From sequence record ON528715: 39,034 nucleotides of DNA. One strand, 5' to 3'. This DNA is from Shigella phage ESh1. A program made the translations under genes and the position numbers. The notes beneath the pieces were generated by a model. It saw only the letters and a list, made by a program, of their open reading frames with translations. It made no database searches and had not been told where the DNA came from. Positions 3,347 through 39,034 of the stretch are shown in pieces; positions within the stretch are counted from its first letter, which is position 1; every line of letters starts with the position of its first letter.

Positions 3347-3394
3347 GGATGACACCAGATTAGGACCAAGGATGGTCTTTAATAAGGAGGATAC

Positions 3395-3598
3395 ATGCTG
3401 TCTTTGGATTTCAATAACGAGTTAGTCAAGGCTGCGCCTATTGTTGGCACTGGTGTGGCTGATGGCGCTGCGAGGCTTTTCTTCGGGCTGAGTCTTAATG
3501 AGTGGTTCTATATTGCTGCTATCGCCTACACAGTGGTTCAGATTGGTGCCAAGGTAGTCGATAAAATGATTGACTGGAAGAAAGCCAATAAGGAGTGA
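3395..3598 (+). CDS. 17.5: Holin (gp17.5)
   Basis: 67 aa, MLSLDFNNELVKAAPIVGTGVADG..., near-identical to T7 gp17.5 as recalled; RBS AAGGAGG. Confidence 0.9.
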   Translation: MLSLDFNNELVKAAPIVGTGVADGAARLFFGLSLNEWFYIAAIAYTVVQIGAKVVDKMIDWKKANKE

Positions 3599-3603
3599 TA
3601 TGT

Positions 3604-3873
3604 ATGGAAAAGGATAAGAGTCTTATTACGTTCTTAGAGATGTTGGACACCGCTATGGCACAGCGTATGCTTGCTGATTTATCTAACGACGAGCGTCGGA
3701 CTCCGCAACTCTATAACGCCATTAACAAACTGTTAGACCGACATAAGTTCCAGATTGGTAAGTTGCAGCCGGATGTTCACATCTTGGGTGGCCTTGCTGG
3801 TGCTCTTGAAGAGTACAAAGAGAAAGTCGGTGATAACGGCCTTACGGATGACGATTTGTACACATTACAGTGA
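3604..3873 (+). CDS. 18: Terminase small subunit / DNA maturation protein A (gp18)
   Basis: MEKDKSLITFLEMLDTAMAQRML... matches T7 gp18; start chosen at the internal ATG by homology (ORF track begins 9 nt upstream). Confidence 0.85.
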   Translation: MEKDKSLITFLEMLDTAMAQRMLADLSNDERRTPQLYNAINKLLDRHKFQIGKLQPDVHILGGLAGALEEYKEKVGDNGLTDDDLYTLQ

Positions 3874-3877
3874 TATA

Positions 3878-3920
3878 CTCAAGGCCACTACATATAGTGG
3901 TCTTTATGGATGTCATTGTC
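3878..3920 (+). promoter_or_regulatory. Probable RNase III processing hairpin (R18.5-like)
   Basis: Motif ACTCAAGG..hairpin (CCACTACATATAGTGG)..CTTTATGGAT, same architecture as other T7 RNase III sites; boundaries approximate. Confidence 0.4.
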
Positions 3921-3967
3921 TATACGAGATGCTCCTACGTGAAATCTGAAAGTTAACGGGAGGCATT

Positions 3968-4411
3968 ATGCTGCAATTTTTACGTAAGCTAGTCCCTTGG
4001 GTTCTCGCTGGGATGCTATTCGGATGGGGATGGCAACTTGGGGCAGACTCAATGGACGCTAAGTGGAAACAGGAGGTACAGAATGAGTACGTTAAGAGAG
4101 TTGAGGCTACGGCGAGTACTCAAAGAGCAATCAATGAAATATCGGCTAAGTATCAAGAAGACCTTGCCGCGCTGGAAGGGAGCACTGATAGGATTATTTC
4201 TGATTTGCGTAGCGACAATAAGCGGCTGCGCGTCAGAGTCAAACCTACCGGAACCTCCGATGGTAAGTGTGGATTCGAGCCTGATGGTAGAGCCGAACTT
4301 GACGACAGAGATGCTAAGCGTATTCTCGCAGTGACCCAAAAGGGTGACGCATGGATTCGTGCGTTACAAGATACTATTCGTGAACTGCAACGTAAGCAGG
4401 AAATCAAGTAG
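3968..4411 (+). CDS. 18.5: Rz-like i-spanin (gp18.5)
   Basis: 147 aa, N-terminal TM segment [15 protein letters not shown], matches T7 gp18.5. Confidence 0.85.
4083..4334 (+). CDS. 18.7: Rz1-like o-spanin lipoprotein (gp18.7), embedded in 18.5 in the +1 frame
   Basis: [26 protein letters not shown] (lipobox-like ISGC) followed by proline-rich region; matches T7 gp18.7; start chosen by homology inside the longer ORF 4038..4334. Confidence 0.8.
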   Translation: MSTLRELRLRRVLKEQSMKYRLSIKKTLPRWKGALIGLFLICVATISGCASESNLPEPPMVSVDSSLMVEPNLTTEMLSVFSQ

Positions 4412-4419
4412 GAGGCAAT

Positions 4420-6180
4420 GTGTCTACTCAATCCAATCGTAATGCGCTCGTAGTGGCGCAACTGAAAGGAGACTTCGTGGCGTTTCTGTTCGTCTTATGG
4501 AAGGCGTTAAACCTTCCGGTGCCCACTAAGTGTCAGATTGACATGGCTAAGGTGCTGGCGAATGGAGATAACAAGAAGTTCATCTTACAGGCTTTCCGTG
4601 GTATCGGTAAGTCATTCATCACCTGTGCGTTCGTTGTGTGGTCCTTATGGAGAGACCCTCAGTTGAAGATACTTATTGTATCAGCCTCTAAGGAACGTGC
4701 AGACGCTAACTCCATCTTTATTAAGAACATCATTGACCTGCTGCCGTTCCTAGCTGAGTTAAAGCCAAGACCAGGACAGCGTGACTCGGTAATCAGCTTT
4801 GATGTAGGCCCAGCCAATCCTGACCACTCTCCTAGTGTAAAATCAGTAGGTATTACTGGTCAGTTAACAGGTAGCCGTGCTGACATTATTATTGCGGATG
4901 ACGTTGAGATTCCGTCTAACAGTGCAACTATGGGTGCCCGTGAGAAGCTATGGACTCTGGTTCAGGAGTTCGCTGCATTACTTAAGCCACTGCCTTCCTC
5001 CCGCGTTATCTACCTTGGTACACCTCAGACAGAGATGACTCTCTATAAGGAACTTGAGGATAACCGTGGATACACAACCATAATCTGGCCTGCTCTGTAC
5101 CCAAGGACTCGTGAAGAGAACCTCTATTACTCACAGCGTCTTGCTCCTATGCTACGTGCTGAGTACGATGAGAACCCTGAGGCACTCGCTGGGACTCCGA
5201 CAGACCCTGTGCGCTTTGACCGTGATGACCTCCGTGAGCGTGAGTTGGAATACGGCAAGGCTGGCTTCACACTACAGTTCATGCTTAACCCGAACTTGAG
5301 TGATGCCGAGAAGTACCCTCTGAGGCTTCGTGATGCTATCGTAGCGGCCTTAGACTTAGAGAAGGCCCCAATGCATTACCAGTGGCTTCCTAACCGTCAG
5401 AACATCATTGAGGACCTTCCTAACGTTGGCCTTAAAGGTGATGACCTTCATACGTACCATGAGTGCTCTAACAACTCTGGTCAGTATCAACAGAAGATTC
5501 TGGTCATTGACCCGAGTGGTCGCGGTAAGGATGAAACAGGTTACGCTGTGCTGTACACCCTGAACGGTTACATCTACCTAATGGAAGCTGGAGGTTTCCG
5601 TGATGGCTACTCTGATAAGACCCTTGAGTTACTCGCTAAGAAAGCTAAGCAATGGGGAGTCCAGACGGTTGTCTACGAGAGTAACTTCGGTGACGGTATG
5701 TTTGGTAAGGTATTCAGTCCTATACTTCTTAAACACCACAACTGCGCAATGGAAGAGATTCGTGCTCGTGGTATGAAGGAGATGCGTATTTGTGATACCC
5801 TTGAGCCAGTCATGCAGACTCACCGCCTTGTCATTCGTGATGAGGTCATTAGGGCCGACTATCAGTCCGCTCGTGACGTAGACGGTAAGCATGACGTTAA
5901 GTACTCACTGTTCTACCAGATGACCCGTATCACTCGTGAGAAAGGTGCTCTGGCTCATGATGACCGATTGGATGCCCTTGCGTTAGGCATTGAGTATCTC
6001 CGTGAGTCCATGCAGTTGGATTCCGTTAAGGTCGAAGGTGAAGTGCTTGCTGACTTCCTTGAGGAGCACATGATGCGTCCTACAGTGTCTGCTACCCACA
6101 TCATTGAGATGTCTGTAGGAGGAGTTGATGTGTACTCCGAGGACGATGAGGGTTACGGTACGTCTTTCATTGAGTGGTGA
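4420..6180 (+). CDS. 19: Terminase large subunit / DNA maturation protein B (gp19), GTG start
   Basis: 586 aa, [19 protein letters not shown]... essentially T7 gp19; RBS GGAGG 6 nt upstream of GTG. Confidence 0.92.
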
Positions 6181-6261
6181 TTTATGCACTGAGACTGCAT
6201 ATGGATGCACTATAGACCACGGATGGTCAGTTCTTTAAGTTACTGAAAAGACACGATAAAT

Positions 6262-6284
6262 TAATACGACTCACTATAGGGAGA
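6262..6284 (+). promoter_or_regulatory. Phage RNAP promoter phiOR
   Basis: TAATACGACTCACTATAGGGAGA consensus downstream of gene 19. Confidence 0.85.
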
Positions 6285-6439
6285 GGAGGGACGAAAGGTT
6301 ACTATATAGATACTGAATGAATACTTATAGAGTGCATAAAGTATGCATATAGTCGTACCTAGAGTGACCTCTAAGAATGGTGATTATATTGTTATTAATA
6401 TCACCTATACTTAAAGACCAACATAAAGGGAGGAGACTC

Positions 6440-6589
6440 ATGTTCCGCTTATTGTTGAACCTACTGCGGCATAGAGTCACCTACCGATTTCTTGTGGTAC
6501 TTTGTGCTGCCCTTGGGTACGCATCTCTTACTGGAGACCTCAGTTCACTGGAGTCTGCCGTTTGCTCTATACTCACTTGTAGCGATTAG
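6440..6589 (+). CDS. 19.5: gp19.5 small membrane-type protein
   Basis: MFRLLLNLLRHRVTYRFLVVLCAALGYASLTGDLSSLES.. matches T7 gp19.5; RBS AAAGGGAGGAG; ORF track extends upstream to 6377 but the RBS supports 6440. Confidence 0.75.
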   Translation: MFRLLLNLLRHRVTYRFLVVLCAALGYASLTGDLSSLESAVCSILTCSD

Positions 6590-8984: not shown

Positions 8985-10064
8985 ATGAACATTACTGACA
9001 TCACGAACGCAATCGACGCAATCAAAGCACTACCAATCTGTGAACTTGACAAGCGCCAAGGTATGCTCATCGACTTACTGGTCGAGATGGTCAATAGCGA
9101 GACATGCGACGGTGAGATAACCGAACTGAATCAGTGTCTTGAGGCGCAAGACTGGTGGACTACCTTGAAGTGCCTCACGGCTGACGCAGGGTTCAAGATG
9201 CTCGGTAATGGTCACTTCTCGGCTGCCTATAGTCACCCTCTGCTGCCTAACCGAGTGATTAAGGTAGGCTTTAAGAAAGAAGACTCAGGCGCTGCGTATA
9301 CCGCGTTCTGCCGCATGTATCAGGGTCGTGCTGGTATCCCTAACGTCTACGATGTACAGCGTCACGCTGGCTGCTATACGGTGGTTCTTGATGCACTCAA
9401 CGACTGTGAATCATATGATAATGAGGTGCACGATAAATATGCTGGGATTGCAAGCGATATTATTGATTACAAATCGGCTGCATATGATAAGCGTACCGGA
9501 TGGGATGGGGAGTTCGTCGAGACTTGCAAGCTAATCCGTAAGTTCTTTGAGGGCATCGCTTCGTTCGATATGCACAGCGGTAACATCATGTTCGACGATA
9601 ACGATGTGCCGTACATTACTGACCCTGTGTCGTTCTCGCACAAGAAAGACGGCGGCGCTTTCAGTATTGACCCTGAGGAACTCATTAAGGAAGTCGAGGA
9701 AGTAGCACTACAGAGGGCAATCGACCGCGCTAAGGCACGTAAAGTACGCCACGAGGGGCGCTTAGCGGCTCGCAAAATGAAACGTCGCAACCGTAAGGCA
9801 CGCAAAGCACACCGCGAAAAATGCCAACGCAAGGTTGCACTGATGAACATAGCAAGAGGCCAGGACTGGCGCAATCACGTCAGAGTAAGGGATGTCATTG
9901 GTACAGTCAGACACGCAAACGCATGGGCGCAAATGCAGTTTGCGGACTTTAAGGCGCTTGAAGAACGCATAGCGGCCCATTGGTTCAACGCTGACAGAAT
10001 GGCTATAGCTAACGGTCTACCGCTGAACATCGACAAGAAACTTGACGCAATGTTTATGGGCTGA
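8985..10064 (+). CDS. 0.7: Ser/Thr protein kinase / host transcription shutoff (gp0.7)
   Basis: 359 aa, [26 protein letters not shown]..., same length and sequence pattern as T7 gp0.7. Confidence 0.9.
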
Positions 10065-13099: not shown

Positions 13100-13357
13100 A
13101 TGGGACGTCTATATAGTGGGAACTTAAATGACTTCAAGGCTGCTTTCAACAGGCTCTACCAGTTGGACCTTGCTGTTATAGCAGTTGAGCAGGAAGGCTC
13201 ACCAAACATAAAGGCAACCATGTACCTTCGGATTGAAGACCGTGCTGGACGCATAATTGCTCAGGAAGAGATTCACCACTGCGACGAAGACGTTCTGTAC
13301 AATATATGCACTGCTTGGCTGAACCGTATGTATGACCAGTTGAAGGACTGGAAGTAA
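13100..13357 (+). CDS. 1.2: gp1.2, inhibitor of host dGTP triphosphohydrolase
   Basis: 85 aa; N- and C-termini (MGRLYSGNL.. and ..MYDQLKDWK) match T7 gp1.2, central region diverged. Confidence 0.8.
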   Translation: MGRLYSGNLNDFKAAFNRLYQLDLAVIAVEQEGSPNIKATMYLRIEDRAGRIIAQEEIHHCDEDVLYNICTAWLNRMYDQLKDWK

Positions 13358-13382: not shown

Positions 13383-13796
13383 ATGAACGACATAAAGCGA
13401 TTCAACGATAAGACCGAACCGTGTGGTGATTGTTTGCGTTGGATTGGTAGCATCCAGCCTAATGGCTACGGACGGTTTCGCCTGCATGGTAAGCCTATGT
13501 ATGCCCATAGGGCTTCGTACATTCTGTTCAACGGTGAGTTGAATAATGGTGATGTAGTCCTACACTCCTGTGACAATAGATGGTGTGTAAATCCGGCACA
13601 CCTAATCAAGGGCACACAGGCAGATAACCTTATAGACATGGCTATCAAAGGCCGTGGCGCTAGAAAGATAACTAATGAGCAGGTCGAGATGATACGTATG
13701 GACCCTCGCTCCGGCAGGGAGCTAGCAAGGGTACTTAATGTAGCTGCTTCGACAATAAGCCACATACGAAACGGTAAACTGAGGAAATATATATGA
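13383..13796 (+). CDS. HNH-family homing endonuclease (free-standing), inserted between phi1.3 and the ligase gene
   Basis: 137 aa with N-terminal CGDCLRW and HNH core GDVVLHSCDNRWCVNPAHLIKGTQADN; stop overlaps ligase start (ATGA). No counterpart at this site in T7. Confidence 0.8.
   Translation: MNDIKRFNDKTEPCGDCLRWIGSIQPNGYGRFRLHGKPMYAHRASYILFNGELNNGDVVLHSCDNRWCVNPAHLIKGTQADNLIDMAIKGRGARKITNEQVEMIRMDPRSGRELARVLNVAASTISHIRNGKLRKYI

Positions 13797-16159: not shown

Positions 16160-16176
<17 letters not shown>
16069..16176 (+). CDS. Small ORF overlapping 1.7 end (1.8-region, frame A)
   Basis: 35-aa ORF MTLNDVLYFGLICAGVGALLRLMYWAIEVEYGKAK starting where T7 gene 1.8 would start; below the ORF-track cutoff. 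Confidence 0.35.
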
Positions 16177-16472
<296 letters not shown>

Positions 16473-16475
<3 letters not shown>

Positions 16476-16495
16476 TACGACTCACTATTAGGGAG
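16473..16495 (+). promoter_or_regulatory. Phage RNAP promoter phi2.5
   Basis: TAATACGACTCACTATTAGGGAG, overlapping the gene 2 stop. Confidence 0.8.
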
Positions 16496-16549
16496 GGAAG
16501 ACCCCCCCCCCTTTGAGAAACCAAATGAAACCTAAAGGAGATTAACATT

Positions 16550-17248
16550 ATGGCTAAGAAGATTTTCACCTCTGCGCTTGGCATCGCTGAACCTTACGCT
16601 TACATCTCTAAGCCGGACTACGGCAACGAAGAGCGTGGCTTTGGGAACCCTCGCGGTGTCTACAAAGTTGACCTGACTATTCCCAACAAAGACCCGCGCT
16701 GCCAGCGTATGGTCGATGAAATCGTGAAGTGCCACGAAGAGGCTTATGCTGCTGCCGTTGAGGAATACGAAGCTAACCCGCCTGCTGTAGCTCGTGGTAA
16801 GAAACCTCTGAAACCGTATGAAGGAGACATGCCGTTCTTCGATAACGGTGACGGCACGACTACCTTTAAGTTCAAATGCTATGCGTCTTTCCAAGACAAG
16901 AAAACCAAAGAGACCAAGCACATCAATCTGGTTGTGGTTGACTCCAAGGGCAAGAAGATTGAAGACGTTCCGATTATCGGTGGCGGCTCTAAGCTGAAAG
17001 TCAAATACTCTCTGGTTCCGTACAAGTGGAACACTGCTGTGGGTGCCAGCGTTAAGCTGCAACTTGAATCCGTGATGCTGGTCGAACTGGCTACCTTTGG
17101 TGGTGGTGAAGACGATTGGGCTGACGAAGTTGAAGAGAACGGCTATGTTGCCTCTGGTTCTGCCAAAGCGAGCAAACCACGCGACGAAGAAAGCTGGGAC
17201 GAAGACGACGAAGGCTCTTACGAAGAAGACTCAGACGGAGACTTCTAA
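16550..17248 (+). CDS. 2.5: Single-stranded DNA-binding protein (gp2.5)
   Basis: 232 aa with acidic C-terminus ...DEDDEGSYEEDSDGDF; matches T7 gp2.5. Confidence 0.95.
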   Translation: MAKKIFTSALGIAEPYAYISKPDYGNEERGFGNPRGVYKVDLTIPNKDPRCQRMVDEIVKCHEEAYAAAVEEYEANPPAVARGKKPLKPYEGDMPFFDNGDGTTTFKFKCYASFQDKKTKETKHINLVVVDSKGKKIEDVPIIGGGSKLKVKYSLVPYKWNTAVGASVKLQLESVMLVELATFGGGEDDWADEVEENGYVASGSAKASKPRDEESWDEDDEGSYEEDSDGDF

Positions 17249-17704
17249 GTGGCTGGCGCATACGCTGCGCGTGGTATCAGAAAGGTCGGGACATTCCGTT
17301 CCGGCCTAGAAGATAAGGTCTCTAAGCAGCTAGAGGGTAAGGGCATTAAGTTCGACTATGAACTGTGGAAAATCCCTTACGTTGTCCCTGCGAGCAACCA
17401 TGTGTATACTCCAGACTTCCTGCTGCCTAACGGAATCTTTATTGAAACCAAAGGTTTATGGGAGAGTGACGACCGAAAGAAACACTTACTGATTCGCGAA
17501 CAGTTTCCCGAACTGGACATCCGTCTGGTGTTCTCAAGCTCACGCACTAAGCTGTATAAAGGGTCTCCTACCAGTTATGGTGAGTGGTGTGAGAAGCACG
17601 GTATTCTGTTTGCTGACAAATTAATTCCTGTAGAATGGCTCAAAGAACCCAAAAAGGAGGTGCCATTTGACAAGCTGAAACAATCGAAGGGAGGAAAGAA
17701 ATAA
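17249..17704 (+). CDS. 3: Endonuclease I, Holliday-junction resolvase (gp3), GTG start
   Basis: 151 aa (M)AGAYAARGIRKVGTFRSGLEDKVSKQLEGKGIKF.. matches T7 endonuclease I; begins directly after the 2.5 stop. Confidence 0.85.
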   Translation: MAGAYAARGIRKVGTFRSGLEDKVSKQLEGKGIKFDYELWKIPYVVPASNHVYTPDFLLPNGIFIETKGLWESDDRKKHLLIREQFPELDIRLVFSSSRTKLYKGSPTSYGEWCEKHGILFADKLIPVEWLKEPKKEVPFDKLKQSKGGKK

Positions 17705-18159
17705 TGGCTCGTGTACAGTTTAAACAACGTGAATCTACTGACGCAATCTTTGTCCACTGCTCGGCTACTAAGCCAAGTCAGAATGTAGGAGTTCGCGAGA
17801 TTCGGCAGTGGCATAAAGAGCAGGGTTGGCTTGATGTAGGGTATCACTTTATCATCAAGAGAGATGGTACTGTGGAGGAAGGCCGAGATGAGATGGCTGT
17901 AGGCTCTCACGTTAAGGGACACAACCACAACTCTATTGGCGTCTGCCTTGTAGGTGGTATCGACGATAAAGGTAAGTTTGACGCTAACTTTACGCCAGCC
18001 CAAATGCAATCCCTTCGCTCACTGCTTGTCACACTGCTGGCTAAGTACGAAGGTGCTGTGCTTCGGGCGCATCATGATGTGGCACCTAAGGCTTGCCCAT
18101 CGTTCGACCTTAAGCGTTGGTGGGAGAAGAACGAACTGGTCACTTCTGACCGTGGATAA
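17704..18159 (+). CDS. 3.5: Lysozyme / N-acetylmuramoyl-L-alanine amidase, RNAP inhibitor (gp3.5)
   Basis: 151 aa MARVQFKQRESTDAIFVHCSATKPSQNVGVREIRQWH.., as T7 lysozyme. Confidence 0.95.
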   Translation: MARVQFKQRESTDAIFVHCSATKPSQNVGVREIRQWHKEQGWLDVGYHFIIKRDGTVEEGRDEMAVGSHVKGHNHNSIGVCLVGGIDDKGKFDANFTPAQMQSLRSLLVTLLAKYEGAVLRAHHDVAPKACPSFDLKRWWEKNELVTSDRG

Positions 18160-18160
18160 T

Positions 18161-18183
18161 TAATTAAACTCACTAAAGGGAGA
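18161..18183 (+). promoter_or_regulatory. Phage RNAP promoter phi3.8-like
   Basis: TAATTAAACTCACTAAAGGGAGA followed by ACCACAACGGTTTCCC; here it directly precedes gene 4. Confidence 0.75.
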
Positions 18184-18215
18184 CCACAACGGTTTCCCTT
18201 TGTTCGCAATGTTGA

Positions 18216-19931
<1,716 letters not shown>

Positions 19932-20482: not shown

Positions 20483-20525
20483 AGTGGTATCCTCAAGGTC
20501 GCCCAAGTGGTGGCCTTCATGAATA
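20483..20525 (+). promoter_or_regulatory. RNase III site R4.7
   Basis: TATCCTCAAGGTCGCCCAAGTGGTGGCCTTCATGAATAC hairpin motif. Confidence 0.5.
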
Positions 20526-20548
20526 CTATTCAACTCACTATAGGAGAT
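20526..20548 (+). promoter_or_regulatory. Phage RNAP promoter phi4.7
   Basis: CTATTCAACTCACTATAGGAGAT, weaker match to consensus. Confidence 0.6.
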
Positions 20549-20554
20549 ATTACC

Positions 20555-20962
20555 ATGCGTGACCCTAAAGTTATCCAAGCAGAAATCGCTAAGTTAGAAG
20601 CTGAACTGGAGGACGTTAAGTACCATGAAGCTAAGACTCGCTCCGCTGTTCATATCTTGAAGAACTTAGGCTGGACTTGGACAAGACAGACTGGCTGGAA
20701 GAAACCAGAAGTTACCAAGCTGAGCCACAAGGTGTTTGATAAGGACACTATGACCCACATCAAGGCTGGTGATTGGGTTAAGGTTGACATGGGAGTCGTT
20801 GGTGGATATGGCTACGTCCGCTCAGTGAGTGGCAAATATGCACAAGTATCATACATCACAGGTGTTACCCCACGAGGAGCAATCGTTGCCGATAAGACCA
20901 GCATGATTCACACAGGTTTCTTGACAGTTGTTTCATACGAAGAGATTGTTAAGTCACGATAA
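20555..20962 (+). CDS. 4.7: gp4.7
   Basis: 135 aa MRDPKVIQAEIAKLEAELEDVKYHEAKTRS.., as T7 gp4.7; start is the internal Met of ORF 20426..20962. Confidence 0.85.
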   Translation: MRDPKVIQAEIAKLEAELEDVKYHEAKTRSAVHILKNLGWTWTRQTGWKKPEVTKLSHKVFDKDTMTHIKAGDWVKVDMGVVGGYGYVRSVSGKYAQVSYITGVTPRGAIVADKTSMIHTGFLTVVSYEEIVKSR

Positions 20963-20980
20963 TCAATAGGAGAAATCAAT

Positions 20981-23095
20981 ATGATCGTTTCTGACATCGA
21001 AGCTAACGCCCTCTTAGAGAGCGTCACTAAGTTCCACTGCGGGGTTATCTACGACTACTCCACCGCTGAGTACGTAAGTTACCGCCCGAGTGACTTCGGT
21101 GCGTATCTGGATGCGCTGGAAGCCGAGGTTGCACGAGGCGGTCTTATTGTGTTCCACAACGGTCACAAGTATGACGTTCCTGCATTGACCAAACTGGCAA
21201 AGCTACAATTGAACCGAGAGTTCCATCTTCCTCGTGAGAACTGTATTGACACCCTAGTGCTGTCACGCTTGATTCACTCTAACCTCAAAGACACCGATAT
21301 GGGTCTTCTGCGTTCCGGCAAGTTGCCAGGAAAACGCTTTGGGTCTCACGCTTTGGAGGCGTGGGGTTATCGCTTAGGCGAGATGAAGGGTGAATACAAA
21401 GACGACTTTAAGCGTATGCTTGAAGAGCAGGGTGAAGAATACATCGACGGAATGGAGTGGTGGAACTTCAACGAAGAGATGATGGACTATAACGTTCAGG
21501 ACGTTGTGGTCACTAAAGCTCTCCTTGAGAAGCTACTCTCTGACAAACATTACTTCCCTCCTGAGATTGACTTCACGGACGTAGGATACACTACGTTCTG
21601 GTCAGAATCCCTTGAGGCCGTTGATATTGAACATCGCGCTGCGTGGCTGCTCGCTAAGCAAGAGCGCAATGGGTTCCCGTTTGACACGAAAGCAATCGAA
21701 GAGTTGTACGTAGAGTTAGCTGCCCGTCGCTCTGAGTTGCTCCGTAAATTGACCGAAACGTTCGGCTCATGGTATCAACCGAAAGGTGGCACTGAGATGT
21801 TCTGCCATCCGCGAACAGGTAAGCCGCTACCTAAGTACCCTCGCATTAAGACACCTAAAGTTGGTGGAATCTTTAAGAAGCCTAAGAACAAGGCACAGCG
21901 AGAAGGCCGTGAGCCTTGCGAACTGGATACCCGCGAGTACGTTGCTGGTGCTCCTTATACTCCAGTGGAGCACGTAGTGTTTAACCCTTCGTCTCGTGAC
22001 CACATTCAGAAGAAACTCCAAGAGGCTGGATGGGTCCCGACCAAGTACACCGATAAGGGCGCTCCTGTGGTGGACGATGAGGTACTCGAAGGTGTTCGTG
22101 TAGATGACCCTGAGAAGCAAGCTGCTATCGACCTCATTAAAGAGTATCTAATGATTCAGAAGCGAATCGGACAGTCTGCTGAGGGAGACAAGGCATGGCT
22201 TCGTTACGTTGCTGAGGACGGTAAGATTCATGGTTCTGTTAACCCCAATGGAGCGGTTACTGGGCGTGCGACCCATGCGTTCCCCAACCTTGCACAAATT
22301 CCTGGTGTACGTTCTCCTTATGGAGAGCAGTGTCGCGCTGCTTTTGGCGCTGAGCACCATTTGGATGGGATAACTGGTAAGCCTTGGGTGCAGGCAGGTA
22401 TCGACGCATCCGGTCTGGAGTTACGCTGCTTGGCCCACTTTATGGCTCGCTTTGATAACGGAGAGTATGCTCACGAGATTCTTAATGGCGACATCCACAC
22501 TAAGAACCAGATGGCTGCCGAATTGCCTACCCGTGATAACGCCAAGACGTTCATCTATGGGTTCCTCTATGGTGCTGGTGACGAGAAGATTGGACAGATT
22601 GTTGGTGCTGGTAAAGAGCGCGGTAAGGAACTAAAGAAGAAATTCCTTGAGAACACCCCAGCTATCGCAGCACTCCGTGAGTCTATCCAACAGGCACTTG
22701 TCGAGTCCTCTCAGTGGGTTGCTGGTGAACAGCGAGTCAAGTGGAAACGCCGCTGGATTAAAGGTCTGGATGGTCGTAAGGTACACGTTCGTAGTCCTCA
22801 CGCTGCCTTGAATACCCTACTGCAATCTGCTGGTGCTCTTATCTGCAAACTGTGGATTATCAAGACCGAAGAGATGCTCGTAGAGAAAGGCTTGAAGCAT
22901 GGCTGGGATGGGGACTTTGCGTACATGGCATGGGTACATGATGAAATTCAAGTAGGTTGCCGTACCGAAGAGATTGCTCAGGTGGTCATCGAGACCGCAC
23001 AAGAGGCGATGCGCTGGGTGGGAGACCACTGGAACTTCCGGTGTCTTCTGGATACCGAAGGTAAGATGGGTCCTAATTGGGCCGTATGTCACTAA
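20981..23095 (+). CDS. 5: DNA polymerase (gp5), family A with 3'-5' exonuclease
   Basis: 704 aa [36 protein letters not shown]...; same length and sequence as T7 gp5 as recalled. Confidence 0.97.
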
Positions 23096-23114
23096 TTCTA
23101 TAGGAGAAATTATT

Positions 23115-23411
23115 ATGGCTATCACTAAGAAATTTAAAGTGTCATTTGACGTTACCCTTAAGCTGGACAGCGAGACAGAAGAATTGATGCGAGAAAAGAT
23201 TCTGGACCTAGCCCATCGTGCTGGTGCTGGTGAGGAAATTGCTCCTATGGACCGAGAGTTGCTAGTTCAGGCCCTGACACGTGGTCCAGACGGTGCCGCT
23301 GCATTTGCTGTTCGCCAAGGTATCCGTAACGCTGTAAAGGAGATGTTCGAAGAGACTAGTGATAAATCACTGTTCAAACAATCCCCTGCAACTGTACGGG
23401 AGGTGTTCTGA
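23115..23411 (+). CDS. 5.5: gp5.5 (H-NS-binding protein homolog)
   Basis: 98 aa MAITKKFKVSFDVTLKLDSETEELMREKILDLAHRAG..; assigned as 5.5 by length and position immediately before 5.7. Confidence 0.7.
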   Translation: MAITKKFKVSFDVTLKLDSETEELMREKILDLAHRAGAGEEIAPMDRELLVQALTRGPDGAAAFAVRQGIRNAVKEMFEETSDKSLFKQSPATVREVF

Positions 23412-23620
23412 TGTCTGACTATCTGAAAGTGCTGCAAGCAATCAAAGGTTGCCCTAAGACTTTCCAGTCCAACTATGTGCGTAACAATGCGAGCCTCGTA
23501 GCGGAGGCCGCTTCTCGCGGGCACATCTCGTGCCTGACTACTAGTGGACGTAACGGTGGCGCTTGGGAAATCACTGCTTCCGGTACTCGCTTTCTGAAAC
23601 GAATGGGAGGATGTGTCTAA
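23411..23620 (+). CDS. 5.7: gp5.7
   Basis: 69 aa MSDYLKVLQAIKGCPKTFQSNYVRNNASLVAEAASRGH.., as T7 gp5.7. Confidence 0.85.
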   Translation: MSDYLKVLQAIKGCPKTFQSNYVRNNASLVAEAASRGHISCLTTSGRNGGAWEITASGTRFLKRMGGCV

Positions 23621-23778
23621 TGTCTCGTGACCTTGTGACTATTCCGCGTGATGTGTGGAACGATATGCAGGGCTACATCGACTCTCTGGAACGTGAGAAC
23701 GATAGCCTTAAGAATCAACTGATGGAGGCTGACGAATACGTAGCCGAACTAGAGGAGAAACTTAATGGCACTTCTTGA
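23620..23778 (+). CDS. 5.9: gp5.9, RecBCD inhibitor
   Basis: 52 aa MSRDLVTIPRDVWNDMQGYIDSLERENDSLKNQLMEADEYVAELEEKLNGTS; acidic DNA-mimic-like. Confidence 0.85.
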   Translation: MSRDLVTIPRDVWNDMQGYIDSLERENDSLKNQLMEADEYVAELEEKLNGTS

Positions 23779-24667
23779 TCTTAAACAGTTCTACGAGTTA
23801 CGTGAAGGATGTAACGACAAAGGAATCCTTGTGATGGATGGTGACTGGCTTGTCTTTCAAGCTATGAGTGCTGCTGAGTTCGATGCCTCATGGGAGGAAG
23901 AGATTTGGCACCGCTGCTGTGACCACGCTAAGGCCCGTCAGATTCTTGAGGATTCCATCAAGTCCTACGAGACCCGTAAGAAGGCTTGGGTAGGTGCTCC
24001 GATTGTCCTTGCGTTCACCGATAGTGTTAACTGGCGTAAAGAACTGGTGGACCCGAACTACAAGGCTAACCGTAAGGCCACTAAGAAACCTGTAGGTTAC
24101 TTTGAGTTCCTTGAGGCCCTCTTTGAGCGAGAAGAGTTCTACTGCATCCGTGAGCCTATGCTTGAGGGTGATGACGTTATGGGAGTAATTGCTTCCAATC
24201 CGTCTGCCTTTGGTGCTCGTAAGGCGGTAATCATCTCGTGTGATAAGGACTTTAAGACCATCCCTAACTGTGACTTCCTGTGGTGTACAACTGGTAACAT
24301 CCTGACTCAGACCGAAGAGTCCGCTGACTGGTGGCACCTCTTCCAGACAATCAAGGGTGACATTACCGATGGTTACTCAGGGATTGCTGGGTGGGGTGAT
24401 ACTGCCGAGGACTTCTTGAACAACCCGTTCATTACCGAGCCTAAAACGTCTGTGCTTAAGTCTGGAAAGAACAAAGGCCAAGAGGTTACTAAATGGGTTA
24501 AACGCGACCCTGAGCCACATGAGACGCTTTGGGACTGCATTAAGTCTATCGGAGCGAAGGCCGGTATGACCGAAGAGGATGTTATCAAGCAGGGCCAGAT
24601 GGCTCGCATCCTTCGGTTCAACGAGTACAACTTTATTGACAAGGAGATTTACCTGTGGAGACCGTAG
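23765..24667 (+). CDS. 6: 5'-3' exonuclease (gp6)
   Basis: 300 aa MALLDLKQFYELREGCNDKGILVMDGDWLVFQAMSA.., as T7 gp6. Confidence 0.95.
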   Translation: MALLDLKQFYELREGCNDKGILVMDGDWLVFQAMSAAEFDASWEEEIWHRCCDHAKARQILEDSIKSYETRKKAWVGAPIVLAFTDSVNWRKELVDPNYKANRKATKKPVGYFEFLEALFEREEFYCIREPMLEGDDVMGVIASNPSAFGARKAVIISCDKDFKTIPNCDFLWCTTGNILTQTEESADWWHLFQTIKGDITDGYSGIAGWGDTAEDFLNNPFITEPKTSVLKSGKNKGQEVTKWVKRDPEPHETLWDCIKSIGAKAGMTEEDVIKQGQMARILRFNEYNFIDKEIYLWRP

Positions 24668-24768
24668 CGTATATTGGCATTGGTCTTAGTGCTCTCGGAG
24701 TGTGCCTCATTGCGTGGGGCCTTTGGGACTTAGCCAGAATAATCAAGTCGTTACACGACACTAAGTGA
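24655..24768 (+). CDS. 6.3: gp6.3 small membrane protein (GTG start)
   Basis: 37 aa (M)ETVAYIGIGLSALGVCLIAWGLWDLARIIKSLHDTK, overlaps the gene 6 end as in T7. Confidence 0.6.
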   Translation: METVAYIGIGLSALGVCLIAWGLWDLARIIKSLHDTK

Positions 24769-24769
24769 T

Positions 24770-24830
24770 AAACTCAAGGTCCCTAAATTAATACGACTCA
24801 CTATAGGGAGATAGGGGCCTTTATGATTAT
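24770..24830 (+). promoter_or_regulatory. RNase III site R6.5 region (flanks phi6.5)
   Basis: AAACTCAAGGTCCC ... GGGGCCTTTATGATTATTAC pairing around the promoter. Confidence 0.5.
24789..24811 (+). promoter_or_regulatory. Phage RNAP promoter phi6.5
   Basis: TAATACGACTCACTATAGGGAGA exact consensus. Confidence 0.9.
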
Positions 24831-24865
24831 TACTTTAAGATTTAACTCTAAGAGGAATCTTTATC

Positions 24866-25120
24866 ATGTTAACACCTATTCAACAATTACTTAAGAACCC
24901 TAACGATATTCCAGATGTACCTCGTGCAACCGCTGAGTATCTACAGGTTCGATTCAACCACGCGTACCTCGAAGCGTCTGGTCATATAGGATTTATGCGT
25001 GCTAGTGGTTGTAGTGAATCCCACATCTTGGGTTTCATTCAGGGCCTACAGTATGCCTCTAACATCATTGACGAGATTGAGTTACGCAGGGAACAACTAA
25101 GAGATGATGGGGAGGATTAA
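24866..25120 (+). CDS. 6.5: gp6.5
   Basis: 84 aa [40 protein letters not shown].. Confidence 0.85.
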
Positions 25121-25798: not shown

Positions 25799-26119
25799 AT
25801 GGGTAAGAAAATTAAGAAGGCCGTGAAGAAAGTCACCAAGCCAATTACGAAAGCCGTGAAGAAAGTTACCAAGGAAGTGGCTCGTCCTGTTAAACAGGTT
25901 GCTGGTGCGCTGGCAGGTGGTGCTGGTGAAGCACAGGTAGTGGAAGTACCACAACCAACGGCTGCTGCAACTCCTGCTGCACAGATTGTTGACGTACCTG
26001 AGAAAGAGGTTTCCACTGAGGACGAAGCACAGACCGAAAGCGGACGTAAGAAAGCCCGTGCTGGCGGTAAGAAGTCCTTAAGCGTAGCCCGTAGCTCAGG
26101 TGGCGGCATCAACATTTAA
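25799..26119 (+). CDS. 7.3: gp7.3 tail/adsorption-associated protein
   Basis: 106 aa lysine-rich MGKKIKKAVKKVTKPITKAVKKVTKEV.., about 7 aa longer than T7 gp7.3. Confidence 0.85.
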   Translation: MGKKIKKAVKKVTKPITKAVKKVTKEVARPVKQVAGALAGGAGEAQVVEVPQPTAAATPAAQIVDVPEKEVSTEDEAQTESGRKKARAGGKKSLSVARSSGGGINI

Positions 26120-26133
26120 ACAGGAGGTGACAC

Positions 26134-27744
26134 ATGGCTGAGAAGCGTACAGGTCTAGCCGAGGAAGGCGCAAAGTCCGTTTATGACAGATTGAAGAACG
26201 ACCGCGCTCCTTATGAGACTCGTGCTCAAAACTGCGCTCAGTACACCATTCCGTCCCTCTTCCCTAAGGACTCCGATAACTCATCCACAGACTACACAAC
26301 TCCGTGGCAAGCCGTGGGTGCTCGTGGTCTCAATAACTTAGCCTCTAAGCTCATGTTGGCACTCTTCCCTATGCAAACGTGGATGAAGCTGACTATCTCT
26401 GAGTATGAGGCGAAACAGTTACTGAATGACCCAGATGGACTCGCCAAGGTCGATGAGGGTCTCTCAATGGTAGAGCGTATCATCATGAACTACATTGAGT
26501 CGAACAGCTACCGAGTGACTCTCTTTGAGGCTCTCAAGCAGTTAGTAGTAGCGGGTAACGTCCTGCTGTACCTACCGGAACCAGAAGGGTCAAACTATAA
26601 TCCCATGAAGCTGTACCGATTGTCTTCTTATGTGGTCCAACGAGACGCATTCGGCAACGTTCTGCAAATGGTGACTCGTGACCAGATAGCTTTTGGTGCT
26701 CTCCCTGAGGACATCCGTAAGGCTGTAGAAGGTCAAGGCGGTGAGAAGAAAGCTGATGAGACCGTCGATGTGTACACTCACATCTATCTGGATGAGGACT
26801 CAGGTGAATACAAACGATACGAAGAGGTCGAGGGTATGGAAGTACAAGGCTCCGATGGGTCTTACCCTAAAGAGGCTTGCCCATACATCCCGATTCGAAT
26901 GGTTCGGCTCGACGGTGAATCCTACGGTCGTTCGTACATTGAGGAATACTTAGGCGACTTACGGTCCCTTGAGAATCTCCAAGAGGCCATCGTTAAGATG
27001 TCAATGATTAGCTCTAAGGTTATCGGCTTAGTGAATCCTGCTGGTATCACCCAGCCACGCCGACTGACCAAAGCTCAGACTGGCGACTTCGTTACTGGTC
27101 GTCCAGAGGACATCTCGTTCCTCCAATTGGAGAAGCAAGCAGACTTTACTGTAGCCAAGGCTGTCAGTGATGCTATTGAGGCTCGCCTTTCGTTTGCCTT
27201 TATGTTGAACTCTGCGGTTCAGCGCACAGGTGAACGTGTGACCGCCGAAGAGATTCGGTATGTCGCTTCTGAACTTGAAGATACTTTAGGTGGTGTCTAC
27301 TCTATCCTTTCTCAAGAATTACAATTGCCTCTGGTACGAGTGCTCTTGAAGCAACTACAAGCCACGCAACAGATTCCTGAGTTACCTAAGGAAGCCGTAG
27401 AGCCAACCATTAGTACAGGTCTGGAAGCAATTGGTCGAGGCCAAGACCTTGATAAGCTGGAACGCTGTGTCACTGCGTGGGCTGCTCTAGCTCCTATGCG
27501 TGATGACCCTGACATCAACCTTGCGATGATTAAGTTGCGCATTGCGAACGCTATTGGTATTGACACTTCTGGTATTCTACTCACCGAAGAACAGAAGCAA
27601 CAGAAGATGGCCCAACAGTCTATGCAAATGGGTATGGATAATGGTGCTGCTGCACTGGCCCAAGGTATGGCTGCACAAGCTACAGCTTCACCTGAAGCTA
27701 TGGCTGCTGCCGCTGATTCCGTAGGTTTACAGCCGGGCATTTAA
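26134..27744 (+). CDS. 8: Head-tail connector / portal protein (gp8)
   Basis: 536 aa MAEKRTGLAEEGAKSVYDRLKNDRAPYETRAQNCAQY.., as T7 gp8. Confidence 0.95.
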   Translation: MAEKRTGLAEEGAKSVYDRLKNDRAPYETRAQNCAQYTIPSLFPKDSDNSSTDYTTPWQAVGARGLNNLASKLMLALFPMQTWMKLTISEYEAKQLLNDPDGLAKVDEGLSMVERIIMNYIESNSYRVTLFEALKQLVVAGNVLLYLPEPEGSNYNPMKLYRLSSYVVQRDAFGNVLQMVTRDQIAFGALPEDIRKAVEGQGGEKKADETVDVYTHIYLDEDSGEYKRYEEVEGMEVQGSDGSYPKEACPYIPIRMVRLDGESYGRSYIEEYLGDLRSLENLQEAIVKMSMISSKVIGLVNPAGITQPRRLTKAQTGDFVTGRPEDISFLQLEKQADFTVAKAVSDAIEARLSFAFMLNSAVQRTGERVTAEEIRYVASELEDTLGGVYSILSQELQLPLVRVLLKQLQATQQIPELPKEAVEPTISTGLEAIGRGQDLDKLERCVTAWAALAPMRDDPDINLAMIKLRIANAIGIDTSGILLTEEQKQQKMAQQSMQMGMDNGAAALAQGMAAQATASPEAMAAAADSVGLQPGI

Positions 27745-36476: not shown

Positions 36477-39034
36477 ATGGATAAGTACGATAAGAACGTA
36501 CCAAGTGATTATGATGGTCTGTTCCAAAAGGCGGCTGATGCCAACGGGGTCTCTTATGACCTTTTACGTAAAGTCGCTTGGACAGAATCACGATTTGTGC
36601 CTACAGCAAAATCTAAGACTGGACCATTAGGCATGATGCAATTTACCAAGGCAACCGCTAAGGCCCTAGGTCTGCGAGTTACCGATGGTCCAGACGATGA
36701 CCGACTGAATCCTGAGTTAGCCATCAATGCTGCCGCTAAGCACCTCGCAGGTCTGGTAGGGAAGTTTGATGGTGATGAACTTAAAGCTGCCCTTGCGTAC
36801 AACCAAGGTGAGGGTAGATTGGGTAATCCACAACTTGAGGCGTACTCCAAGGGAGACTTTGCGTCCATCTCTGATGAAGGACGTAATTACCTTCGTAATC
36901 TTCTAGATGTGGCTAAGTCTCCTATGGCTGGACAGTTGGAAGCATTCGGTGGTATCACCCCAAAGGGTAAAGGCATTCCTGCTGAGGTAGGACTTGCTGG
37001 TATTGGGCATAAGCAGAAGGTTACGCAGGAACTTCCTGAGTCCACAAGTTTTGACGTTAAGGGTATTGAACAGGAGGCTCCGGCGAAACCATTCGCCAAG
37101 GACTTTTGGGAGACCCATGGAGAAACACTTGATGAGTACAATAAGCGTTCAACATTCTTCGGATTTAAAAATGCTGCCGAAGCTGAACTCTCCAACTCAG
37201 TCGCTGGTATGGCCTTCCGTGCTGGTCGCCTCGATAATGGTTTTGATGTGTTTAAAGACACCATTACGCCGACTCGCTGGAACTCTCACATCTGGACTCC
37301 AGAAGAGTTAGAGAAGATTAGAACCGAAGTTAAGAACCCTGCGTACATCAACGTGGTAACTGGTGGTTCCCCTGAGAATCTTGACGACCTCATTAAGCTG
37401 GCTAACGAGAACTTTGAGAATGACTCACGCGCTGCTGAGGCTGGTCTTGGGGCTAAGCTAAGTGCTGGCGTTATCGGTGCTGGTGTGGACCCTCTCAGCT
37501 ATGTACCTATGGTTGGGGTTACTGGTAAGGGCTTCAAGTTAATCAACAAGTCTCTTGTGGTTGGTGCTGAGAGTGCTGCCCTTAACGTGGCTTCGGAAGG
37601 ACTACGCACCTCCGTTGCTGGTGGTGATTCCGACTATGCTGGAGCGGCTCTAGGAGGCTTTGTATTTGGTGCAGGAATGTCTGCACTCAGTGACGCTATC
37701 GCCGCTGGTCTGAAACGGAATAAGCCAGAAGCTGAGTTTGACAATGAGTTTATTGGTACTATGATGCGAATGGAAGCACGCGAGACTGCACGTAACGCCA
37801 ACTCTACGGACCTCTCTCGGATGAATACAGATAACATGAAGTTTGATAGTGAGCATAACGGTATTCCATATGCAGACCTTCCTACTGAGAAGGGTGCTGT
37901 GGTTCTCCATGATGGCTCTGTACTTAGTGCTAGTAACCCAATCAATCCTAAGACTCTCAAAGAGTTCTCCGAGGTTGACCCTGAGAAAGCTGCACGAGGC
38001 ATCAAACTAGCAGGATTCACTGAGATTGGGTTGAAGACCTTAGGCTCAGACGACGCCGATATTCGACGTGTGGCTATTGACCTAGTGCGGTCTCCTACCG
38101 GAATGCAATCAGGTTCCTCAGGTAAGTATGGTTCAACAGCTTCGGATATTTTCGAGAAACTTCGTGGCACTGACCAGCGTACTTACAACGACTTGTATAA
38201 GGCGATGTCTGACGCGATGAAAGACCCTGAGTTCTCCACTGGTGGAGCTAAGATGTCTCGAGAAGAAGCTCGTTACACTATCGAGCGTCGAGTGGCCTTG
38301 GCTATTGAGAACCCTGAGCTACAGAAGGCTTTAACTCCTAACGAGCGAATCGTAATGGACATCGTTAAGAGACATTATGACACCAAGCGTGAACTCATGG
38401 AGAACCCTGCGGTCTTTGGTAATACCAAGGCTGTGAGTATCTTCCCAGAGAGTCGCCACAAGGGTACATATGTTCCACATGTGTACGACAAGTACGCTAA
38501 GGCACTTAAGATTCAACGTTATGGCGCTGAGGGCTTACAGGAAGGTATCGCTCGGTCGTGGATGTGTAGCTACGATTTGAGACCTGCGGTAAAGGCCCGT
38601 ATTGACGAAGCACTTAAAGAGATGCACGGTGTAGAGGAAGTCACACATGATATGGTGTATAAGTACGCTATGGATAAAGCATATGGTATCTCCCACTCAG
38701 ACAGGTTCACTAATAGCTCCATCATTGAGGAGAACATTGAGGGTCTTGTCGGTATTGAGAATAACTCATTCCTTGAAGCACGAAACCTCTTTGACTCCGA
38801 CTTAGCAATCACCATGCCAGATGGCGAGCAATTCTCTGTGAACGATTTGAGGGACTTTAGCATGTTCCGTATCATGCCAGCGTATGACCGCCGCATAAAT
38901 GGTGACATCGCCATCATGGGGTCTACTGGTAAAACCACTAAGGAACTTAAGGATGAGATTTTGGCTCTTAAGGCGAAAGCCGAGGGTGACGGTAAGAAGA
39001 CTGGCGAGGTTCATGCTCTAATGGATACCGTTAA
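36477..39034 (+). CDS. 16: Internal virion protein D (gp16), N-terminal portion with lytic transglycosylase motif; 3' partial, continues at 2..1399
   Basis: MDKYDKNVPSDYDGLFQKAADANGVSYDLLRKVAWTESRFVPTAKSKTGPLGMMQF..; open to window end; the two parts total 3957 nt (1318 codons plus stop), the size of T7 gp16. Confidence 0.92.
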   Translation, partial: MDKYDKNVPSDYDGLFQKAADANGVSYDLLRKVAWTESRFVPTAKSKTGPLGMMQFTKATAKALGLRVTDGPDDDRLNPELAINAAAKHLAGLVGKFDGDELKAALAYNQGEGRLGNPQLEAYSKGDFASISDEGRNYLRNLLDVAKSPMAGQLEAFGGITPKGKGIPAEVGLAGIGHKQKVTQELPESTSFDVKGIEQEAPAKPFAKDFWETHGETLDEYNKRSTFFGFKNAAEAELSNSVAGMAFRAGRLDNGFDVFKDTITPTRWNSHIWTPEELEKIRTEVKNPAYINVVTGGSPENLDDLIKLANENFENDSRAAEAGLGAKLSAGVIGAGVDPLSYVPMVGVTGKGFKLINKSLVVGAESAALNVASEGLRTSVAGGDSDYAGAALGGFVFGAGMSALSDAIAAGLKRNKPEAEFDNEFIGTMMRMEARETARNANSTDLSRMNTDNMKFDSEHNGIPYADLPTEKGAVVLHDGSVLSASNPINPKTLKEFSEVDPEKAARGIKLAGFTEIGLKTLGSDDADIRRVAIDLVRSPTGMQSGSSGKYGSTASDIFEKLRGTDQRTYNDLYKAMSDAMKDPEFSTGGAKMSREEARYTIERRVALAIENPELQKALTPNERIVMDIVKRHYDTKRELMENPAVFGNTKAVSIFPESRHKGTYVPHVYDKYAKALKIQRYGAEGLQEGIARSWMCSYDLRPAVKARIDEALKEMHGVEEVTHDMVYKYAMDKAYGISHSDRFTNSSIIEENIEGLVGIENNSFLEARNLFDSDLAITMPDGEQFSVNDLRDFSMFRIMPAYDRRINGDIAIMGSTGKTTKELKDEILALKAKAEGDGKKTGEVHALMDTV

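Follow-up and report, generated by a model that had tools for sequence, protein, structure and literature searches.

The DNA analysed here, referred to throughout as the window, is the 39,034-nucleotide sequence of Shigella phage ESh1 (record ON528715), a complete T7-like (Teseptimavirus) phage genome in circularly permuted form, starting inside gene 16. On its plus strand, which carries all the features described below, gene 5 occupies positions 20981–23095 as a single open reading frame encoding a T7-type DNA polymerase of 704 aa, the product being 99.3% identical to T7 gp5 over those 704 residues and the two genes 95.6% identical in nucleotides. The gene runs uninterrupted in the window, whereas in the relative Bas104 an intron lies after the position equivalent to 22939; an Rfam scan of positions 20500–25000 of the window found no structured RNA. 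The gene 5 stop codon, ending at 23095, is followed by a spacer of 19 nt (23096–23114; TTCTATAGGAGAAATTATT) containing a ribosome-binding site, with the Shine–Dalgarno motif AGGAG at 23102–23106, 8 nt before the ATG of gene 5.5 at 23115. Downstream of gene 5.5 (23115–23411, 98 aa) come gene 5.7 (23411–23620, 69 aa), whose start overlaps the gene 5.5 stop codon in the sequence TGATG and whose product is 98.6% identical to T7 gp5.7; gene 5.9 (23620–23778, 52 aa), of the RecBCD-inhibitor family (98.1% aa identity to T7 gp5.9; Pfam Phage_T7_Gp5_9, E = 2.4e-6); and gene 6 (23765–24667, 300 aa), encoding an exonuclease 98.3% identical to T7 gp6. The original prediction for this DNA had gene 5 ending at 23095 and a 98-aa gene starting at 23115, followed by genes 5.7 and 5.9, and the ORF calls and protein identities agree with it on every one of these points.

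The same prediction had assigned the 98-aa gene as 5.5, and the assignment holds: residues 1–98 of the protein match positions 1–99 of the 99-position Pfam profile PF11247 (Phage_T7_55, DUF2675) with an E-value of 4.3e-27 and a score of 94.6 bits, the cut-off being 25. When the protein was compared with both gp5.3 and gp5.5, it had no similarity to the former and aligned with the latter, the identity being 97% to the T3 protein and 93% to the 98-aa, T3-type gp5.5 of phiA1122. T7 gp5.5, according to the annotation of the T7 record, binds the host H-NS and relieves silencing, and to this protein the window allele is only 51% identical over 99 aa (E = 3e-28). The gene moreover lies directly upstream of 5.7, 5.9, and 6, and its product keeps the C-terminal SPATVREVF.

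Gene 5.5 as a whole is 61.6% identical to that of T7 in nucleotides, as against about 95% in the flanks. From sliding identity, the positions of the mismatches, and the identities per gene, we delimited a divergent core at 23144–23372, whose nucleotide identity is about 55% to T7 and to Shigella phage ESh3, and 86–96% to T3, 64795_ec1, Bas104, and phiA1122. To judge from these identities, the core is an allelic replacement between conserved gene ends, and the allele may be called T3/phiA1122-type; the original prediction had passed over this feature of the gene.

In T7, as the prediction had correctly stated, a gene of 118 aa, 5.3 (16483–16839 of the T7 record), stands between genes 5 and 5.5. 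We searched for it in the window at the levels of protein and nucleotide. When T7 gp5.3 and the homologous ORF21 product of 64795_ec1 served as tblastn queries against the window in six frames, the best E-values were 0.4–0.6, and no gp5.3-like or PDDEXK_5-like protein was recovered; with the whole T7 5.3 interval as a blastn query at word size 7, the sole match in the window was a 17-nt segment at 23098–23114, which holds the ribosome-binding site and is common to all these phages. The window thus contains no remnant of gene 5.3, and the description of the junction as clean, with a ribosome-binding site and without a pseudogene, was accurate. The 19-nt spacer contains no open reading frame, nor is there an HNH gene of the T3 gp5.3 type between genes 5 and 5.5. 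Further tblastn searches of the window with T3 gp5.3, the HNH protein of the Bas104 intron, and the small ORFs that occupy the slot in other phages, together with a word-7 blastn search with the T3 5.3 interval, returned only an unrelated HNH gene and the shared ribosome-binding site. That HNH gene (13383–13796, 137 aa; Pfam HNH_3, E = 1.5e-8) lies between genes 1.2 and 1.3, a slot that is empty in T7, and is the only homing-endonuclease-like gene that we found in the window; none of the four homing-endonuclease-like genes of T7 (2.8, 3.8, 5.3, and 7.7) stands at its T7 position. We considered this HNH gene as a displaced homologue of 5.3 and rejected it: it is the best match in the window of T7 gp2.8 (39%, E = 2e-19) and of T7 gp7.7 (39%, E = 2e-22), to which it is related instead, whereas against T3 gp5.3 the E-value was only 0.006. 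A search for 5.3 elsewhere in the genome having thus given nothing, the absence of a counterpart is confirmed. Since this is an observation of gene content and not a statistical pattern, chance is not at issue, and the question becomes whether the absence is unusual.

The original prediction had called the T7 protein HNH-like; T7 gp5.3 (NP_041983) and the 64795_ec1 ORF21 product match Pfam PDDEXK_5 instead (E = 1e-10), and it is the product of the T3 gene also named 5.3, non-homologous to T7 gp5.3, that belongs to HNH_3 (E = 5e-19). Among PDB sequences T7 gp5.3 had a single and marginal match (2OST, E = 0.013), the structure of the homing endonuclease I-Ssp6803I, so that the family assignment leans mainly on Pfam. 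On this basis T7 gp5.3 is predicted to be a PD-(D/E)XK nuclease of the I-Ssp6803I family. The literature that we searched contained no experiment in which T7 gp5.3 was shown to cut DNA or to home, and no cleavage-site or marker-exclusion experiment for this slot in the T7 group.

Most relatives have the uninterrupted junction, and T7 is the exception. At least 88 phage records, including those of phiA1122, 13a, ESh3, and Bas104, span the junction without interruption, a count obtained with a 59-nt probe required to be covered to at least 80% in one piece at an identity of at least 90%, and seven of them match at 100%; the 19-mer spacer recurs without change in ESh3, phiA1122, Bas104, and 12 IMG/VR loci. 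In IMG/VR, 15 of 22 loci are empty, the other seven being occupied by inserts of 173, 259, 265, 329, 381, and 383 nt, of about five kinds. Homologues of gp5.3 were limited to 100 phage records, of which 57 are T7 strains, so that the T7-type gene is the minority state. The original prediction was therefore right as to the absence, while its framing of the gene as missing reflected the choice of T7 as the reference.

Where the gp5.3 homologue does occur, in Teseptimavirus, Przondovirus, Kayfunavirus, Berlinvirus, and Ghunavirus, its position is fixed, always directly after gene 5 and before gene 5.5. The content of the slot varies: T7, 64795_ec1, KP32, Kvp1, and others have a PD-(D/E)XK gene, T3 has an unrelated HNH gene, and a few further relatives have a short ORF that encodes no nuclease. 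In T7, 64795_ec1, and T3 the gene 5 stop codon is followed at once by the extra gene, which brings a ribosome-binding site of its own; downstream of the insert T7 and 64795_ec1 keep CTATAGGAGAAATTATT, and T3 keeps only AGGAGAAATTATT. Close relatives with conserved flanks accordingly differ by the presence or absence of a gene at exactly the same nucleotide position. Two of the families represented among the inserts, PDDEXK_5 and HNH_3, include known homing endonucleases, and two other types of insert have no Pfam match; since some inserts thus carry no recognisable nuclease, the slot is a general insertion hotspot and not one reserved for homing endonucleases. Occupancy and the allele of gene 5.5 were found in nearly all combinations: a PD-(D/E)XK gene with the T7-type allele in T7 and with the T3-type allele in 64795_ec1, an HNH gene with the T3-type allele in T3, an empty site with the T7-type allele in ESh3, and an empty site with the T3-type allele in the window, phiA1122, and Bas104. 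Only the combination of an HNH gene with the T7-type allele was not seen among the genomes compared.

The end of gene 5 also differs among these genomes. In the window the last four codons and the stop (23081–23095) read GCC GTA TGT CAC TAA, for A-V-C-H, and this terminus is the form of almost all genomes without 5.3, being present in 19 empty loci; T7, 64795_ec1, and KP32, all with a PD-(D/E)XK gp5.3, have AICH instead (GCG/GCA ATT TGC CAC/CAT), an association behind which stand only three independent occupied lineages. The differences of the window from T7 and 64795_ec1 fall at 23083, 23084, 23086, and 23089. One phage, vB_Yep_15, has an empty site yet an AICH terminus, so that the link between terminus and occupancy is not absolute; two chimeric probes combining gene 5 terminal codons with occupancy found no exact recombinant.

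Several known phages help to place the window. In Yersinia pestis phage phiA1122 (NC_004777) and Escherichia phage 13a, which are different phages overall and about 94% identical in nucleotides to the window over this region, the gene 5 stop codon is likewise followed by the same spacer and by gene 5.5, with no 5.3; phiA1122, unlike the window, keeps the HNH gene 7.7. In the literature searched, which did not include the phiA1122 genome paper, nothing was found on phiA1122 together with gene 5.3. The closest overall relative found, ESh3 (ON528717; 96.3% identity over 24 kb), resembles the window in its empty 5/5.5 junction and in lacking 2.8, 3.8, and 7.7, and has in the equivalent 1.2/1.3 slot an ORF annotated as a hypothetical protein, which corresponds in position to the window HNH gene; it differs in having a T7-type gp5.5 of 99 aa and an extra ORF of 116 nt between 5.5 and 5.7. 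The flanks of T7 5.3 are otherwise collinear with the window, the 17 nt downstream of the T7 insert being identical, and the HNH gene 5.3 of T3 and phiYeO3-12 stands in this same slot, between gene 5 and a gene 5.5 of the T3-type allele that the window also has; both inserts are absent from the window.

Free-standing homing endonuclease genes are familiar from the T-even phages, as the seg and mob genes (SegG and SegE are examples), and from the 'HEG islands' beside polymerase genes. As in the T7-group slot, these are small nuclease genes between conserved essential genes, and they display presence/absence polymorphism, mixed nuclease classes at one place, and exchange of neighbouring alleles, the difference being that the window shows the empty allele only. 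Homing endonuclease genes of different classes have been described as clustering beside DNA polymerase genes, where the set present is unstable (PMC10448857). Within the T7 group itself, the homing endonuclease gene 5.3 is present or absent between the near-identical T3-like phages SH1 and SH2/phiYeO3-12 (PMC4925675), and in T7 the gene has been handled as non-essential and replaceable (bioRxiv 10.1101/2024.11.17.624010).

We consequently read the junction in the window, with a probability of roughly 90%, as the empty allele of a known polymorphic insertion site for homing endonucleases. A free-standing nuclease of this kind would, upon mixed infection, cleave the empty allele close to the 3' end of the essential polymerase gene, and recombinational repair from the occupied genome would then copy the nuclease gene, together with nearby markers, into the recipient; that gp5.3 homes in this manner, and that its cut lies there, we infer. 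A nuclease gene that is dispensable might also be lost, or never acquired, and a patchy distribution would result. Nothing is broken in ESh1: as in most relatives, the conserved ribosome-binding site just after gene 5 serves for the translation of gene 5.5. We favour the possibility that this lineage was never invaded over that of an empty allele regained by recombination. Recombination with an empty-site phage and a history without invasion would leave the same junction in the window.

If, alternatively, a T7-type 5.3 had been present in the ancestor and precisely deleted in situ in this lineage, a T7-like ancestor would be plausible in view of the 98–99% identity of the gene 5, 5.7, 5.9, and 6 proteins to those of T7; the gene is dispensable, and vB_Yep_15, with its empty site and AICH terminus, looks like a lineage that lost or resisted it. 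The junction of the window, however, agrees in every base with the 19-mer shared by dozens of independent genomes that have one or the other 5.5 allele, and a random deletion would not recreate it; gene 5 ends in codons of the empty type and not of the T7 type; and the adjacent gene 5.5 is another allele, so that the segment as a whole did not arise from that of T7 by deletion. We accordingly hold such a deletion to be improbable. Almost as little credit is given to the proposal that gp5.3 is not mobile at all but an ancient accessory gene of the Studiervirinae, inherited vertically and repeatedly lost. That PD-(D/E)XK homologues stand at the identical position in five genera, with identities (40–78%) that fall roughly in step with the divergence of their phages, is compatible with such a history; against it, the occupants of the slot in other relatives are unrelated, being an HNH nuclease or small ORFs, occupancy differs between very close relatives whatever the flanking alleles, the other nuclease-like genes of T7 are equally patchy in this genome, and a fixed position beside an essential gene combined with a variable nuclease family has been documented as the signature of homing endonuclease genes (PMC10448857).

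Two further explanations would dispose of the absence itself, and to neither do we attach any appreciable probability. The 98-aa gene might have been the 5.3 counterpart, or 5.3 might have moved elsewhere in the genome, for which we found no supporting point: the full-length Phage_T7_55 match and the gp5.5 alignments refute the former, and for the latter no frame of the window matches gp5.3 below an E-value of 0.4, the sole nuclease-like extra gene being the relative of gp2.8 and gp7.7 at 13383–13796. An assembly or collapse artefact might instead have dropped some 360 nt at the junction; the assembly is indeed permuted, starting as it does within gene 16, but the junction is identical in many independently sequenced isolates, and the ribosome-binding site is functional and correctly spaced.

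Because an uninterrupted junction is common, and documented, in a slot that selfish nuclease genes enter and leave, the absence of 5.3 from ESh1 is ordinary and already known. Its import goes little beyond the annotation of the region, which should list genes 5, 5.5 (T3-type allele), 5.7, 5.9, and 6, and no 5.3. The case illustrates that a difference from a reference can be an oddity of the reference, T7 carrying a selfish and dispensable nuclease gene absent from most of its relatives; phages like ESh1, for their part, offer a natural empty target on which T7 gp5.3 could be assayed for homing. In this connection we tentatively suggest that the four positions at which the final 13 nt of gene 5 differ (GCC GTA TGT CAC in the window, GCG ATT TGC CAY in T7 and 64795_ec1) might mark the recognition or immunity site of gp5.3, a proposal that we regard as possible and not as probable. 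If it were correct, ESh1 would be a natural recipient open to cleavage, T7 gp5.3 would function as a homing endonuclease aimed at the 3' end of the polymerase gene, and the allele replacement in the nearby gene 5.5 would be a by-product of nuclease-stimulated recombination.

In Shigella phage ESh1, the slot that follows the DNA polymerase gene of T7-group phages, a polymorphic site for homing endonuclease genes, is in its common, empty form. Gene 5 (20981-23095; 704 aa) is separated from the 98-aa ORF at 23115-23411 by 19 nt between 23095 and 23115, which spacer reads TTCTATAGGAGAAATTATT and contains an AGGAG 8 nt upstream of the ATG at 23115. Genes 5.7 (23411-23620; 69 aa), 5.9 (23620-23778; 52 aa), and 6 (23765-24667; 300 aa) follow, the protein identities to T7 being 99.3% for gp5, 98.6% for gp5.7, 98.1% for gp5.9, and 98.3% for gp6; the original prediction had described this ORF layout exactly. 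The 98-aa protein matched the Pfam family Phage_T7_55 from end to end (E 4.3e-27), aligned over its whole length with T7 gp5.5 (51% identity, E 3e-28), and was 97, 95, and 93% identical to the gp5.5 of T3, 64795_ec1, and phiA1122, respectively, with no similarity to gp5.3; judged by these comparisons it is gp5.5, as had been proposed. The 118-aa gp5.3 of T7 (T7 16483-16839) had no counterpart in the window, where the best six-frame matches reached only E 0.4–0.6, and when the full T7 5.3 interval served as query in a sensitive search at the nucleotide level, all that came back was a 17-nt ribosome-binding-site segment (23098-23114) common to every member of the group. Since the 98-aa protein did not align to gp5.3 instead, and since a 5.3 homologue was not found elsewhere in the genome either, the reported absence of 5.3 between genes 5 and 5.5 is confirmed and the main interpretation stands, with two corrections, concerning the family of gp5.3 and the allele of gene 5.5.

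The absence of 5.3 is not unusual; T7 is the exception, not ESh1. When a 59-nt probe centred on the gene 5/5.5 junction was compared with phage records, an uninterrupted one-piece match was obtained in at least 88 of them (7 at 100%), including phiA1122 and its Yersinia pestis relatives, 13a, N30, C5, JB01, ESh3, and Bas104, along with many phages of Klebsiella, Serratia, Salmonella, and Citrobacter. Among 22 IMG/VR loci located via gp5.5, 15 had a spacer of 16–19 nt, which in 12 of these 15 was the identical 19-mer. T7-type gp5.3 homologues, for their part, occurred in only 100 phage records, 57 of which were T7 laboratory strains.

In junction alignments of T7, 64795_ec1, and T3, the stop codon of the polymerase gene is followed immediately by the extra gene, which brings its own Shine–Dalgarno sequence. 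Downstream of the insert, T7 and 64795_ec1 retain gene 5.5's original CTATAGGAGAAATTATT-ATG, and T3 retains only AGGAGAAATTATT-ATG. At least five kinds of insert occupy this slot: a PD-(D/E)XK gene (381–383 nt), the T3 HNH gene (329 nt), two related versions of a 75–76-aa ORF (259 and 265 nt; IMG/VR contigs L017 1235-1500 and L028 1241-1500), and a 55-aa ORF (173 nt; contig L016 1327-1500), none of these short ORFs matching a Pfam family. Each 75–76-aa insert is flanked on either side by a copy of the ribosome-binding-site region. The PD-(D/E)XK gene is found at one fixed place in five genera, represented by T7/64795_ec1, KP32, YZ1/ST37, Kvp1, and Emajogi. The genes named 5.3 are not all of one family: the HNH-like nature that the original prediction attributed to T7 gp5.3 was not borne out, that protein and its 64795_ec1 homologue matching instead PDDEXK_5 of Pfam (E about 1e-10), with a marginal sequence match from T7 gp5.3 to PDB 2OST (E 0.013), which structure we take to be I-Ssp6803I, a PD-(D/E)XK homing endonuclease. 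The T3 gene called 5.3 encodes a different, unrelated protein, which is HNH (HNH_3, E 5e-19).

The nucleotide identity between the window and T7 is about 95% in gene 5 and in 5.7–6, and 61.6% in gene 5.5; within about 23144-23372 the identity drops to about 55% with T7 and ESh3 and is 86–96% with T3, 64795_ec1, Bas104, and phiA1122. Therefore, ESh1, like phiA1122, combines a T7-like backbone with a 5.5 allele of the T3 type. Occupancy of the slot is independent of the adjoining allele: the PD-(D/E)XK gene precedes a T7-type 5.5 in T7 and a T3-type 5.5 in 64795_ec1, the HNH gene precedes a T3-type 5.5 in T3, and the empty slot adjoins a T7-type 5.5 in ESh3 and a T3-type 5.5 in the window, phiA1122, and Bas104; only the HNH gene with a T7-type 5.5 was unseen. 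The 23144-23372 patch forms a short mosaic directly downstream of the slot.

At this slot, nuclease genes that are small and belong to unrelated families recur at a single position next to an essential gene; they are distributed patchily among near-identical genomes, their boundaries are precise, and there is allele exchange next door. Such a pattern is a recognised hallmark of free-standing homing endonuclease genes. In a mixed infection the nuclease would cut the empty allele, whose recombinational repair would then copy the nuclease gene together with adjacent markers; we infer that gp5.3 is catalytically active and cuts at some site. This biology is ordinary and documented before: within the T3-like group, the homing endonuclease encoded by gene 5.3 of SH2 and phiYeO3-12 is missing from SH1 (PMC4925675); DNA polymerase genes have clusters of homing endonuclease genes next to them, in which the classes are mixed and the content is unstable (PMC10448857); and one study regards gene 5.3 of T7 as non-essential, its wholesale replacement leaving the phage viable (bioRxiv 10.1101/2024.11.17.624010).

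The empty slot of ESh1 might reflect either a lineage that was never invaded, or that regained the empty allele by recombination, or else a deletion of 5.3 in situ. Because the junction matches the common empty allele at every base and gene 5 ends in codons of the empty type, in-situ deletion is the less favoured. As to those codons, gene 5 ends in A-V-C-H in 19 of the 19 empty loci examined and in A-I-C-H (GCG/GCA ATT TGC CAY) in the three independent lineages that carry T7-clade gp5.3 (T7, 64795_ec1, and KP32), and chimeric probes found no genome combining the exact T7-type end with an empty site or the empty-type end with 5.3. Yersinia phage vB_Yep_15 (L035 61-143) nevertheless has GCG ATT TGT CAC followed by an empty spacer, so that the linkage between terminus and occupancy is strong, not absolute; that junction may be the footprint of a 5.3 loss or a naturally resistant target allele. 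The linkage itself could stem from a co-conversion tract, from a resistant target, or from loss of the gene in a lineage, and is proof of none of these.

Insertions also vary at two further points no more than 500 bp from the slot; in the window none of the three points is occupied. Bas104 (L006 3031-3631) carries, after the equivalent of window position 22939, a 601-nt insert with an HNH gene, also present in JeanTinguely, which insert interrupts gene 5 about 155 nt before the stop, whereas gene 5 of the window is uninterrupted; the Bas104 insert scored 36.8 bits (E 1.3e-7) against the Rfam group I intron model Intron_gpI, under the gathering score of 50. ESh3 (L002 11322-11438) has, after the equivalent of 23415, an extra 116 nt with a 38-aa cysteine-rich ORF between 5.5 and 5.7, unlike the window and T7. 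In a genome-wide search with T7 proteins, none of the four nuclease-like T7 genes 2.8, 3.8, 5.3, and 7.7 was at its T7 position, those of the HNH-like genes being vacant at 17245-17255 (2.8), 18156-18216 (3.8), and 26119-26134 (7.7). A single HNH_3 gene (13383-13796, plus strand; 137 aa) instead separates genes 1.2 and 1.3, between which T7 has no gene; its product, 39% identical to T7 gp7.7 and gp2.8, is probably a free-standing homing endonuclease adjoining the ligase gene, and ESh3 has an ORF of equal size, annotated as hypothetical, in the equivalent slot.

By tblastn with 56 T7 proteins, the window (1-39034) is a complete T7-like genome in permuted order, with gene 16 at the right end, genes 17–19.5 at 1472-6586, and 0.3 onward from 7883. 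The window start falls within gene 16, of which 36477-39032 holds only the first 852 of 1318 aa, and the genome ends with their terminal repeat are expected at about 6.6–7.0 kb. The nearest deposited relative is ESh3 (96.3% over 24 kb), identity to T7 itself being 92.4%. Alignment to the T7 tail fibre gp17 is confined to its N-terminal 290 of 553 aa, at 90% identity (window 1472 to about 3390); the C-terminal receptor-binding part is replaced, which suggests a host range different from that of T7. Further mosaic patches relative to T7 affect gp1.2 (13100-13354; 61% identity), gp1.8 (16172-16273; 41%), and gp0.7 (8985-10061; 82%), most other proteins being above 90%.
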